DNA from: Flaccisagitta enflata
Lineage: Eukaryota
NCBI GenBank assembly: GCA_965153355.1
Contig: OZ231126.1
Location: 15,190,001 to 15,254,000 of the forward strand
DNA length: 64,000 nucleotides
Direction: 5' to 3'
Shown: positions 53,701-59,700 of the stretch, piece by piece
Position numbering within the stretch: position 1 is the first letter of the stretch
Layout: each line of letters begins with the position of its first letter
The notes under the pieces: generated by a model
Told to the model about the DNA's origin: nothing
Seen by the model: the letters and a program-made list of their open reading frames with translations, nothing else
Databases searched by the model: none
Translations under genes and position numbers: made by a program

Positions 53701-56700
53701 CAATGACCTATGCTTACACACATATGAGGGATTTTCTCCTACTTCTCCTCCTCCTCCGCCCCCCCCCCCTCTGGCCCAAATCCCAGCGTTGAGGCCCAAA
53801 TCACAGCCTTGAGGCCCAAATCCCAGTCAGGTTGGGATTTGGGCGTCAAGGTTGGGATTTGGGCCTCAAGGCTGGAATTTGGGCCATGTGGCTAGGATCT
53901 GAGCTAAAGGGGGGACTTGCGAGAAGGAGGAGGAGGAGAAAATCCCCCATATGTGTGAAAGCATAGGTCATCGACCCCTTCGGGGCCCCTGCCCAAAAAG
54001 AAAAGAAGAGAAGGAGAGGAAGAGGAGAACACTGGCAAGAAAGAAACAAGTGACGCGGGGTCACAAAATCGTTGCGGACGGGTGGACAGGGGCACTCGAC
54101 CCCCATCCAAGTCCCACACTCAAAATGCATCTGAAACGTTTGTTTTAGCACTTTTCGACCCGCACTGTGGGCTTTTTTAGGCAAACCTTTCTCAAAACCT
54201 CTGGTAACTTCTAATCCAATTTTTTTCGCACAGTTCAATCCTGTAGGTGTCCTAGATGCCCTAACAAGCAAATATAACCAGCTTAATGGGCCCCAGGGCC
54301 CCCAAAGGACCCAAAAGTAGGTTTTTGAGGAATTTTAGTTTTTTTTTATTATTGTCATGTCTTATTTTGGTTATGTATGGTAAATTTCAACCCTATTAAT
54401 GTGATAGAGGCCCTAGCAAGAAAAAATTGCCGGTGGTAAGGGCCCTAGGGGCCCCTAGAGACCGTAAAAGCAGGTTTTTGAGGCTATTTTAGGTTTTTTT
54501 TGCAGATCATGTTTTTTTCGTTATGTATTTTAGATTCTATCTTTGATAATATGAAAGAGGTTCTAGCAAGCTAAATTTTTGGGTGTTATGGGCCTAAGGG
54601 GCCCCTAGAGACTATTAAAGTAGGTTTTTTAGGCTATTTTTGAGGTTTAGTGCTTACAATCATAGGTTTTTTTTTGTTTACAGTAAATTCAAACCTTGTT
54701 AATGTGAAAGTGGTTCTAGCAAGAAAAAATTTTTGGGTGTTATGGGCCCCAGGGGCCCATAAAGACCATAAAATTAGGTTTTTGAGGCTATTTTTGGGCT
54801 TTTTACTTATAATTATGGGTTTTTTTGTTGTGTATTGTAAATTCTATCTTTGATAATATGATATAAGTTCTAGCAAGCAAAATTTTTGGGTGTTATGGGC
54901 CCCAGGGACCCCTAGAAACCATAAAAACAAATTTTTGAGGCTATTTTTTTTATCCACGCCACTTCTAACATGCAACAGACTTGATTTCAAAGTATAGTTA
55001 CATGCCGTATTTCCTGCATTTATCGCCCCCCCTCTAATTAGCGCCCCCCCCTTTGAAGAAAGAGAGAGCTCATGACAGACTGTTATTTTTGGGAAAAATC
55101 CTTTCAAATTTATTGTAAATCATGTTGTTTATTGAAATAAAAATTTTAAGAATGGTATGTGATATGAAAATATTCTTTGTTTTAGTGCTTTATTGCATTG
55201 AAATATGAAATTTTTGTCATTTTGTTCATTTAAAATCATCTATACATGAGTGTACGAGGGGGCGCTAATTGCAGGTTGAAAATGACAATGTTTCATTTCA
55301 ATTTCAAAAGCGCCCGGGGCGCTAATTACAGGAAATACAGTAAACTTTTATAAAAAGCATCCAAAAATCTTGCCCATAATCAGTTATATATATATGTACT
55401 CGGGCATCTTTTTTAGTCGCGTGCTACGCGACTCTACAACCCTCTTTGTCGGTCCGTCCGTCGGTCCGTCCGTCCGCCCGTCCGTCCGTCACACTTTACT
55501 TTTTTTTTGGTTTTTGCAGTCTTTGGCCTCACCGCTCCTGCCCAAATGATTGAGTGACCTCAAATACAGCCCCTGCCCACCCGCACGCGACTGGGGTAGC
55601 CGTGTATCCGGCCTTGTTTCTCCTCCTCCTCCTCCTCCTCCTCCTCCTCCTCCTCCTCCTCCTCCTCCTCCTCTCTTCAACAGTTCCACAAGGTCACTTT
55701 CAAACCAATGTCCTGTGGTAAATATCATCTTTTAGATGTACAAAGCTTGGCCAGTATTATAGATTTACAAGATTTGCAGCCGCCACCGCCGCCTCCTCCT
55801 CCTCCTCCTTGTCCCTTCAACAGTTCCACAAGGTTACTTTCAAACTAAAGTCCTGTGGTAAATATCATCTTTTAGATGTACAAAGCTTGGCCAATATTAT
55901 AGATTTACTAGATTTGCCGTCGCCATCGCCGCTGCCTCCTCCTCCTCCTCCTCCTCCTCCTCCTCTTCCCCCCTTCAACAGTTCTACAAGGTTACTTGTA
56001 AACCAACATCCTGTGGTAAATGTTATCTTTTAGATGTACAAAGCTTGGCCAATATCGTAGATTTACAAGATTAGCAGCCGCCACCGCCGCCTCTTCCTCC
56101 TCCTCCTCCTCCTCCTCCCTTCAACAGATCCACAAGGTTACTTTCAAACCAATGTCCTGTGGTAAATATCATCTTTTAGATGTGCAAAGCTTGGCCAATA
56201 TCATAGATTTACAAGATTTGCAGCCGCCACCGCCGCCTCCTCCTCCTCCTCTTCCTCCTCCTCCTCCTCCCCACAATTCATCTCATCCCACATTGTATGG
56301 TCTACTAAATAACTAGCAACAAGTCTAGACTTTCATAAGAAACAATGTTTCTGTAATAGTAGAGGTGAAATAGACAAATTCCAATGGAGCAGATTTTCAA
56401 ATTGCCCTCTTGAGACAGGGGAAAATAGCATAGTGCTATTTCTCCAAAATGGTGAGAGGTACAAAAAAATGGAAACCAGTCCCTTGTAGGCCATCACCAA
56501 AAGGTAAGAATTAACAAAAAAAATTATCTTAAGTCCTGGGTGTACATAGGTAAAAAGAAATAAAACTGGATTTTTTGCTCTTCCCCCTTCCATAGGATTA
56601 CAATGGGAAGTTACTCATTGATTTTTAAAAAACGCATTATTTAGTATTGCTGCAAAACTATGAGAGGTACAAATATAATGAAACCTGATTATGAAACCTT

Positions 56701-59700
56701 AGAGTTTCCTCTACAAATTTCAGTAATAATATTGTCTTAATGTTTGAGTGTACTATGGTTTAAAAAAATAATAAGGCCACTGACCCCTTTATTTTTAATG
56801 AAATAGGCCTCATTGAGCGAGTTTAGAGCGCTGTAAACCCCCCCCAAGTAAAAAATTCAGCCAAAATTGTGATTGGTATTTTACATACTAACCATTACTC
56901 TTCTGTTTCAACCATATTTGTTTCATTTTTTTCATTTTTTAATTTTCACAAAATTGGCCATTTCAGCTTCCAGAGCCTAAGTCCAGGTGATTACATAGTG
57001 GGCACTTACTTCCGGTCAAGGTATCATTCTATGGCTGGTTAATATCAAATATATAGACTAAAGATTAGGTTTGGCGTTTTTGGGTTCTCCATTTTTGGCA
57101 TAAAAGTGCCCTCTGAGGTAATGAGAAAGGTCGGCCCACAGTGACCCGTGTTCACGGACAGACGGACGGACGGACAAAGCCTCTTATAGAGTTGCGTGTC
57201 CGCAACTAAGAAGAAGAGGACATGAAGTTACAAAAAAAAGAACAAACAAAAAACACAAATGCGCAGTGCGCACATACATGATACAATCAATATCAAATTT
57301 AAAAATGCTCATTCTAGGTCTCTCCAGCTCAAGACGAACGGAAAACTACTTCGTGATCGGTATGGTGTCCTATATCGGAAGATCAAGAAATCAACTCAAC
57401 GCGAAAAACTTTTTGCCGCCATTCATCATATAAACATTCTTCCCGGCGAATTTAACGCCGACTTCGATTCACTCCAGTTCGACGAGGAATTTGAACCTGA
57501 TCCCAAAGTACGCTTACTCAACGCAAAAGTAGAGCAGTTGCAACAGAGTTTGACCCTCGGTGCAGACCGACATCAAGGGGAGCTTCGAATGATTCAAGAA
57601 AAGTTCGACGAGTCGCAGAAGTTGTTGCGGGAACGAGACGATGAAAAGAGGGTCTTGACGGAGAAGAATGACAAACTAGAGCGGCGGAATGTTTTTCTCG
57701 GCAATCATGCGAATGCTCTGGAGACGGAAGTCCAAGAAAGCTACCAATCACTAGGTCTTACATGAAAAGAAACTCGGTAAAACCTGTTATTACGTTGGGT
57801 GGGCAAGGGCTGTGATGCAGAGGATATTTTGTGGGGGATATGATGCAACTACAGTTGAACCCCGCAGTAACGGAACTAATTGTATCTGTCATCAGTAGAT
57901 TTCCATTTTTGCAAAAAAAAAAAATAAATGAATAAATAGTTTGAAGGGACCAGCATTTTGTAACTGTTATATGCAGATTTATATTACTCTTGTGTCCGTT
58001 AAAGCGGGGTGTGACTGTACCAATAAATCCGAAAAAAAAAGCCCAAGATGAAACTGTTGTGGACTGACGGACAGGCAAACTGGCAAACAGAACCATCGAT
58101 GCAACAATTAAAAAACACAAACCAGTGTGGCTATAAAGTTGAAAGTCGGCAACTAAAAAGTTTTTGATTTTTTTTCTCCGTTTGCGTTACAACATAATAG
58201 ACGCTCTGAGAATCGAAAACGAGCGTCTTATTCGCGAAGGGAAATCCCGCGATAAAGTCCTTGGAAGAAAGAAGCTGAAAGACATGGGAAAAGGGGGGGC
58301 CGAGAGAACCAAGGCCTCGTACCGCGAGCGTCTCGTCGACGAAATCAATCGTTTTGGCGAGGCAAGAGGTCTAGTCCTGGAGACTGTCACCCTCCGAGAC
58401 AATGATGGTTGTCAGCTGAAGGTGAATGCGGAAAAGCCACGTACCTACGCCGAACTCAACCCGGAAGAGAGAAGGCGCGTGGAAAACGCGTCATCATGGA
58501 AAGACAAGAATCGAGTCGCTGACAAGGTCTATTCCGCCTTGAACAAAATCGGGCAATTTCCGGCGGCGAGTCACGTTAAAGCCCATGAAAAAGAACTGAA
58601 CAAAGAATGCGCTCAAATTCATGTGGTGAGTCGTCAATTCAATTTTGCGTTTCTGCAATTATGCAACTGCTTTTTCTGTTTGCCTGTTTGACTGCCAGAT
58701 TGGCTCTCTCTCTCTCTCTCTCTCTCTGTCTGTCTGTCTGTCTGTCTGTCTCTCTCTGTCTCTCTCTCTCTGTCTCTCTCTCTCTGTCTCTCTCTCTCTC
58801 TCTCTCTCTCTCTCTCTCTCTCTCTCTCTCTCTCTCTCTCTCTCTCTCTCTCTCTCTCTCTCTCTCTTTCTCTCTCTCTCTCACACACACACTCTCTTAT
58901 CGCCTCTCTAGGTAGCGGGAGAGGCGCGCGGGGGTCGCGTCAATGTGGCCGAGGAAACAAAGAAGCTGATATCTCACCAGCTTAAAGTTGGGGGACTTGA
59001 CCACGGCGACATTGTTTACGTCAAGTTGGCCATGGATGGGACCAACATTACGAAGAAAGAAGTCGCGACGGCCGCCACCATTACACTTTCTAATGAAACG
59101 AGGGCGCTTAGTTTGGGAACAATCTCCATAGTGATGACGGGAGAATCATATGAAGTAATTGAAATTGTTGTTTTAAGGACTGTTAGATAACAAACTTGTA
59201 AACCCTAGAATTTTTAGTTGCGGACACGCCACTCAACAAGAGGCTTTGTCCATCTGTCTGTTTAAATGTTTATCCATCTATCTCTTCTCTGTTATGTTGA
59301 AACATTGAGTTACAAAAAATCTGTAAAGCGAATATTTTGCCCCTTCCCTCTATCCCCCTCCCTCCCTCCACGGCAATGTTGTTACCCCGCTTTACTTTGT
59401 AACCCCGCGTAATTTGTTTTACAATAGGCCATTCGCTCGATGTCAAAAGAGATGATGGAGGAGCTACGGGATCTCGCGATTGAAGGCGAATTCACCGATC
59501 CGGCCACCGGCAAGACGGTTTTCATTTCCGCTTTTATCGGCGGTGAGGGTGTTAAGTAACAAGGCCATGAAGAACAAAACAAGCTCAGGGGAGCGTGACC
59601 AACGGATGCACCTATCGAAGAAGAGAGAAAGAGAGAGAGAGAGAGAGAGAGAGAGAGAGAGAGAGAGAGAAGAAAAAAAAAAAAAAGAAAATTAGAAAGA

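Follow-up and report, generated by a model that had tools for sequence, protein, structure and literature searches.

How does a cut-and-paste transposon come to have two ends whose recognition boxes lie about one helical turn apart in their distance from the terminus, and does such a difference belong to a whole family or to one damaged copy? The question is raised by a locus in Flaccisagitta enflata, for which we analysed a stretch of 64,000 nucleotides (nt) of the forward strand (assembly GCA_965153355.1, contig OZ231126.1, positions 15,190,001–15,254,000); this whole stretch is called the window, and all coordinates below refer to it. Near its right side a DNA element is inserted into a repeat, and each of its ends carries a heptamer and an inner 17-base-pair (bp) box separated by a spacer, which measures 15 nt at the left end and 5 nt at the right. 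We assign a probability of about 0.72 to the reading that this is an old, non-autonomous cut-and-paste transposon of the Transib/RAG-like (RAGL) kind, and that its unequal ends are the layout of its family rather than damage to a single copy. The insertion, its target site duplication, the anatomy of the ends, the repetition of both arms, the presence of both spacer forms elsewhere and a RAG1-like gene adjacent to the element are directly observed.

The inserted DNA occupies 54163–57143 (2,981 bp), and its letters and coordinates were checked: on the forward strand it runs from CACTGTG to CACAGTG. Both of its flanks belong to one copy of a repeat that resembles a short interspersed nuclear element (SINE-like repeat), which contains a (GGAC)n tract and reaches a summed contig depth of 1e6–1e7 across four sequencing runs. 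An uninterrupted paralogue of this host repeat is present in the same window at 42581–42799, spanning the insertion point with a single copy of the site. The paralogue reads ...TTTTCTCG directly followed by TGTCCACGGAC..., and the element locus reads ...TTTTCGACCCG, then the element, then ACCCG, and then TGTTCACGGAC.... The paralogue crosses the insertion point without a break, so that boundaries and duplication are genuine, and the proposal of the sequence-only reading that a transposon is located here, with a duplication of 5 bp and heptamer ends that start with CAC, is confirmed both by the letters and by this uninterrupted copy. Contigs that join 54085–54094 to 57157–57168 also represent host-repeat copies that lack the insertion, with unknown letters between the joined parts, and are thus not a letter-exact empty site. 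As a caveat, a G at both 54157 and 57143 permits a 6-bp direct repeat to be read; the 5-bp reading keeps the termini symmetric.

The two ends share one layout, which can be written as the pattern CACTGTGGGC-N(2 or 12)-ACCTTTCTCA. The inverted terminus is perfect over 10 nt, and when the two ends are aligned globally over their first 80 nt, one 10-nt gap is needed and 25 of the 29 aligned positions are identical. The terminal repeats are therefore 39 nt long on the left and 29 nt on the right, the 17-bp box included, and beyond the box the similarity breaks off abruptly, nothing alike being left in the 80-nt alignment. Coordinates and alignment bear out what had been claimed from the letters alone, namely that the ends share a heptamer and a box (15/17 identical), and the single gap bears out spacers that are 10 bp apart in length. 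Because the extra 10 nt have the trinucleotide GGC on either side, several equivalent placements of the gap exist. The box pattern (W at the two variable positions, up to 3 mismatches) is found only at the two ends in the 64 kb, compared with a mean of 0.96 in shuffled sequences. With at most one mismatch, CACTGTGGGC is found at four sites in the window, the two ends together with 10086 and 43752; the latter two were rejected as further ends since no box adjoins them. An apparent recurrence of the left spacer behind the right box, in swapped motif order, was also discarded, as 13% of shuffles score equally.

The evidence on other copies comes from Logan contigs mapped onto the region with a likeness of at least 80%, taken from two runs of the organism (X1 and X2) and two marine metagenomes (X3 and X5), the latter containing small shares of the window only, for the main part the SINE-like repeat. 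The low-copy stretch 57293–57400, with a depth of a few hundred, served as yardstick; summed contig depth does not equal copy number, and all depth ratios given here are rough. Measured in this way, the left-end bin 54134–54250 is 51, 75 and 78 times as deep as the yardstick in X1, X2 and X3, and the bin 56942–57058 in the right arm is 509, 367 and 550 times as deep in the same runs; this bin has about 10 times the depth of the adjoining inner bins. One contig of X3 (record 24; 194 nt, 19 mismatches, 0 gaps) spans 56963–57143 and stops precisely at the element's last base, and because it is gapless up to that base, another copy has the short right spacer and the same terminus. On the left, a second contig of X3 (record 17; 260 nt, 29 mismatches, 1 gap) and one of X5 (record 25; 412 nt, 50 mismatches, 5 gaps) follow the arm from 54172 inward; since both begin inside the extra 10 nt, other copies have the long left spacer. 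Mixed left-spacer lengths would break contigs near 54180, and a break at 54172 points instead to variation in the last 9 nt, so that other left ends probably vary in their terminal 9 nt. No indel at either spacer is found among the indels listed. Among the best-supported variants listed, none falls in 54172–54206 or 57085–57143 and five fall in the 33 nt of the left arm that come next, and the element diverges from the contigs of other copies by about 10–12% in its arms. The asymmetry is therefore probably a trait of the family: that the 10-bp difference might be an indel private to this copy, a possibility which the sequence-only reading had itself named as fatal, is answered by the gapless right-end contig of another copy and the two contigs with a long left spacer.

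Public metagenomes add traces of the same family. Five open reading frames (ORFs) from metagenome assemblies (76–96 amino acids (aa), 68–93% identical) match the right-arm frame 56863–57039 on the forward strand. These frames are spurious, and they indicate that assemblies of public metagenomes include DNA of the transposon family and that gene calling has treated it as genes. All five share one stop codon, which lies 101 nt short of the terminus, and are uninformative on the spacer. Searches for the ends themselves gave no match in metagenome contigs, either with heptamer and box separated by a gap of 0–16 nt or with a word of 21 bases taken from the right arm, the family's most abundant part, and none in viral contigs. 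Four box matches in prokaryotic metagenome-assembled genomes were rejected as family copies, none having an adjoining heptamer and their count being about that expected by chance. The protein collection gave no candidates for the left-end read-through frame (57 aa), and a self-BLAST of the element versus the remainder of the window returned SINE-like and low-complexity pieces only, with no second family member.

Directly to the right of the host repeat, and outside the duplication of the element, lies a broken or intron-bearing transposase gene, with pieces at 57226–57765, 58143–58691, 58912–59190, 59823–60029 and 63558–63998. Searched singly against Pfam and PDB, these pieces gave no match. 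The last piece has relatives in metagenome assemblies that are 91% and 84% identical (371 and 384 aa), and a HMMER search with one metagenome relative found 175 relatives at E ≤1e-3 in a library of 1.84 billion proteins, including proteins of 631–863 aa. A profile was made from an alignment of 21 long, full-length relatives; against PDB its top 16 sequences are all RAG1 or amphioxus RAG1L (best E 2e-8), the next match having an E of 0.027, and the alignment to RAG1 includes the regions around the second catalytic aspartate and the catalytic glutamate. By tblastn, the pieces in the window map onto the core of this family. The family's proteins combine a coiled coil at the N-terminus with a RAG1-like core and a C-terminus that is SAP-like, and no Pfam family reaches the match threshold. 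The most frequent Pfam match is RAG1, though a weak one (4 of the 21 members, best E 0.0048), and of 56 families matched the 25 listed include no CACTA transposase family. An AlphaFold model with a predicted local distance difference test score (pLDDT) of 83.6 matches RAG1 (E 3.3e-13), BbRAGL (3.8e-10) and HzTransib (7.6e-9) in Foldseek, thus standing closer to RAG1 and BbRAGL than to HzTransib. Where the RAG1 chain contains the nonamer-binding domain, some Foldseek alignments extend further (655–681 versus about 575 columns), which in the predicted model hints at an equivalent of that domain in the neighbouring family. Since the sequence profile matches RAG1 itself, sequence comparison favours the Transib/RAGL side for this gene, and the right kind of enzyme exists in the genome of the element.

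The layout may be compared with several known systems. Kapitonov and Jurka (2005; PMC1131882) state that target site duplications of 5 bp set Transib apart from every other superfamily, and RAG, ProtoRAG and HzTransib have in common a CAC heptamer, a nick/hairpin mechanism and a 5-bp duplication (PMC10462144). The heptamer CACTGTG, met at both ends of the element, resembles the Transib/RAG-like consensus heptamers CACAGTG and CACAATG (PMC1131882), and non-autonomous RAGL elements with duplications have been reported (Martin et al., 2020). That asymmetric ends are already on record in this superfamily, as the sequence-only reading had stated, holds for AanRAGL, PflRAGL-A, Transib and ProtoRAG alike. 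Within this literature, as far as its available parts describe it, the closest known layout is that of AanRAGL from Aureococcus anophagefferens (Tao et al., 2022; PMC9435367), which likewise has a 5-bp duplication, a CAC-initiated terminal element, a second element that is not A-rich and short unequal spacers, there 4/13 with a 9-bp difference. AanRAGL is autonomous (RAG1L and RAG2L) and has elements of 13 and 10 bp, whereas the element described here is gene-less and combines a heptamer (10 nt shared) with a 17-bp box at 5/15; the two are compared by layout.

Five Transib families have ends of the 12/23 type, Transib5, Transib2_AG and TransibN1–N3_AG (PMC1131882, PMC8355894). They share with our element the 5-bp duplication, the CAC heptamer, ends that differ from each other by about one helical turn, terminal repeats of about 38 bp and the occurrence of autonomous together with non-autonomous members, and they differ in having an A-rich nonamer at 12 or 23 bp where a 17-bp box that is not A-rich stands here at 5 or 15. 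PflRAGL-A of Ptychodera flava (PMC10462144) likewise shows a heptamer with a second element, a 10-bp spacer asymmetry and 5-bp duplications; it differs by a TR2 block beside the heptamer, an AT-rich nonamer-like element and the genes RAG1L-A and RAG2L-A. ProtoRAG of amphioxus (PMC8289069) also has bipartite ends (the TR1 heptamer and TR5, which is not A-rich) with fixed unequal spacers, and its enzyme performs better on the unlike pair; its spacers, however, are 27/31, a difference of 4 bp that makes no helical turn, its heptamer is CACTATG and it is autonomous. Finally, the RSSs (recombination signal sequences) of V(D)J recombination have a CAC heptamer and spacers of two classes that differ by about one turn, and the heptamer found here deviates from CACAGTG at position 4 only; unlike our element they are host signals, whose nonamer is A-rich, whose spacers measure 12/23 and whose pairing rule is experimentally proven. 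A search of full-text literature for CACTGTG together with a transposon and a target site duplication returned only a paper on mouse RSSs, and figures and supplements may contain similar termini.

By analogy with these systems we infer the cleavage chemistry, the binding of the box and any pairing preference. A RAG1-like DDE transposase acting in trans would recognise both ends by the terminal heptamer and the 17-bp box, nick the DNA at the heptamer border and free the element via hairpins on the flanking DNA, and reinsertion with a 5-bp stagger would give rise to the ACCCG duplication. The extra 10 bp at the left amount to about one helical turn and would place the box on the same face of the helix at both ends, an offset that the transposase presumably tolerates or uses, because a family with the long-left/short-right layout has multiplied. 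A function of the box is indirectly supported, in that the similarity of the ends stops after it and no well-supported variants are listed inside the terminal repeats.

Several observations weigh against the family reading. One complete copy of the element has been seen. The contig-level statements concern the 32 contig pieces listed of about 328,500, and the absence of contrary variants among them is thus weak. The left-arm contigs begin at 54172 and leave the terminal 9 nt of the other copies outside view. Depth is also unbalanced: relative to position 54207, which lies 45 nt from the left terminus, position 57084, at 60 nt from the right one, has 9.2, 5.1, 8.3 and 4.2 times the depth in X1, X2, X3 and X5. 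Given this excess, many right-type ends must exist without this left arm as partner, and since one of the five metagenome ORFs (P0006) moreover matches only from about 56945, there is a much more abundant set of elements that shares only about the last 200 bp of the right arm (56942–57143). The inner box, ACCTTTCTCAWWACCTC, is not A-rich, unlike the nonamer of an RSS or of Transib; yet an A-rich second element is not required for the superfamily, because AanRAGL and ProtoRAG, as described in the papers cited, do without one. No matching terminal repeats surround the transposase gene within the window, and the gene is therefore not established as the partner of the element. To our knowledge, there is no solved structure of a CACTA, Mirage or Chapaev transposase, and the fold match alone consequently leaves these superfamilies possible for the neighbouring gene.

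Among the other explanations, the one that survives best is a neutral legacy, in which a 10-bp indel at the GGC...GGC microhomology occurred once in the founder of a sub-family and was tolerated, the terminal 10 bp or so being sufficient for transposition and the box being kept by descent. The GGC on both flanks of the extra 10 nt and the far greater abundance of the right-type arm would fit such a history, as would the proposal of Martin et al. (2020) that RAGL enzymes recognise only about 15–17 terminal bp. We nevertheless think it unlikely, as a box kept merely by descent sits poorly with a similarity that stops sharply at its border and with its 15/17 identity in the face of arms that have diverged by about 10–12% from the contigs of other copies; the distribution of the variants listed (none in 54172–54206 or 57085–57143, five in the next 33 nt on the left) argues weakly in the same direction.

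A strict 5/15 rule, under which only a pair of one short-spacer and one long-spacer end synapses and is cut, as an independent analogue of the 12/23 rule, appears to us rather improbable. In its favour are the spacer difference of 10 bp, about one helical turn, the presence of both spacer forms in other copies, the hint of a nonamer-binding-domain equivalent given by the longer Foldseek alignments to RAG1 chains, the unlike-pair preference published for ProtoRAG (PMC8289069), and asymmetric ends that are reportedly universal in Subgroup I Transib (PMC9435367). Only one end pair, that of this element, is observed, however, and a right arm 4.2–9.2 times as deep as the left in 4/4 runs departs from the balance expected if these two arms paired 1:1. 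Martin et al. (2020) also propose that invertebrate RAGL enzymes are rather insensitive to asymmetry and that the terminal 15–17 bp are key. The fuller version, in which the family of the adjacent RAG1-like transposase enforces the unlike-pair rule and the 17-bp box, not A-rich, replaces the nonamer in a compact and independent 12/23 analogue, is more doubtful still.

Assignment of the element to another CAC-ended superfamily (CACTA, Mirage or Chapaev) instead of Transib/RAG-like is very improbable. Its termini do begin with CACTG, and those superfamilies, being kin of RAG1 and Transib, could yield RAG1-like fold matches too. They produce target site duplications of 2–4 bp, however, and the duplication here is 5 bp; RAG1 is also the most frequent Pfam match of the neighbouring family, and CACTA is missing from the 25 families listed of 56 matched. 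Lastly, a chance similarity or an assembly artefact without any transposon, for which the presence of one copy in the window might speak, is refuted by the paralogous uninterrupted site and by the contig mapping, with arms repeated in four independent runs and one contig ending exactly at the terminus, and it would also have to produce, all at once, an inverted terminus that is perfect over 10 nt, a box with 15/17 identity and a duplication that agrees at 5/5 positions.

The transposon thus retained as a Transib/RAG-like family member is composite inside (Table 1). It has no ORF of at least 100 aa wholly within it, and for this reason, together with the tandem arrays and nested repeats in its interior, we regard it as non-autonomous and composite. 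The nested repeat that resembles a miniature inverted-repeat transposable element (MITE-like) has a summed depth of about 1.3–1.5e5 in X1 (bins 54953–55069 and 55187–55303).

Table 1. Features of the element and of its surroundings, in window coordinates.
Feature	Position	Strand	Evidence
Left half of the SINE-like repeat hit by the insertion (host DNA)	54040–54162	-	depth, self-BLAST, paralogue alignment
Left target site duplication, ACCCG	54158–54162	.	sequence; uninterrupted paralogous repeat
Left terminal heptamer, CACTGTG, begins the element	54163–54169	+	sequence; alignment of ends
Left spacer, 15 nt, includes 10 nt absent from the right end	54170–54184	+	sequence; other-copy contigs from 54172 inward
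Left inner 17-bp box, ACCTTTCTCAAAACCTC	54185–54201	+	sequence; pattern search
Tandem array, 153-bp unit x3.6, alternatively 307-bp unit x1.9	54380–54948	.	repeat analysis
Nested palindromic MITE-like repeat; 23-nt inverted arms 55007–55029 / 55316–55338, 87% complementary	55007–55338	.	
Nested SINE-like repeat copy with (GTCC)n tract, limits approximate	55380–55620	+	depth 1e6–1e7; partial window copies
Tandem array, units of 146–158 bp, about 4 copies, (CCT)n tract in each	55637–56272	.	repeat analysis
Right subterminal arm, most abundant part of the family	56942–57114	.	left limit from depth jump
Right inner 17-bp box, ACCTTTCTCATTACCTC, 15/17 identical to left box	57115–57131	-	sequence; pattern search
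Right spacer, GGCCG (read inward), 5 nt	57132–57136	-	sequence; X3 record 24
Right terminal heptamer, CACAGTG on + strand, ends the element	57137–57143	-	sequence; end of X3 record 24
Right target site duplication, ACCCG	57144–57148	.	sequence; uninterrupted paralogous repeat
Right half of the same SINE-like repeat	57149–57215	-	depth, self-BLAST, paralogue alignment
RAG1-like transposase family gene, outside the element, runs off the window	57226–63998	+	open frames, profile, fold

The surrounding DNA is rich in other repeats. The SINE-like repeat, with its (GTCC)n/(GGAC)n tract, is found at 54040–54162 with 57149–57215, at 55380–55620 and at 42581–42799, and, as numerous partial copies, at other places in the window. 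Two inverted copies of a 74-nt unit (53680–53753 and 53921–53994) lie immediately to the left of the host repeat; this unit is present at no fewer than six further places in the window, e.g., 23592–23666 and 49641–49710, and is probably another foldback or MITE family. An inverted repeat at 46892–47355 has 224-nt arms that are 88% complementary, with 16 nt between them. An open frame at 10525–11499 on the forward strand contains a G-patch domain (Pfam E 2.3e-11) and is probably an exon of a host gene; Atlas look-ups of this exon and of one transposase piece were uninformative. Rfam gave no match in the whole 64-kb window.

Unequal transposon ends are central to the origin of the 12/23 rule of V(D)J recombination, and this element adds to the natural cases in which the distance from heptamer to second box is one helical turn greater at one end than at the other. 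At 5/15, its spacers are only slightly longer than the published 4/13 of AanRAGL, and the same genome has a RAG1-like transposase family without a Pfam family match above threshold. On present evidence a known pattern is widened and no new principle is added; if a 5/15 rule were true, an invertebrate would possess an independent and compact analogue of the 12/23 rule.

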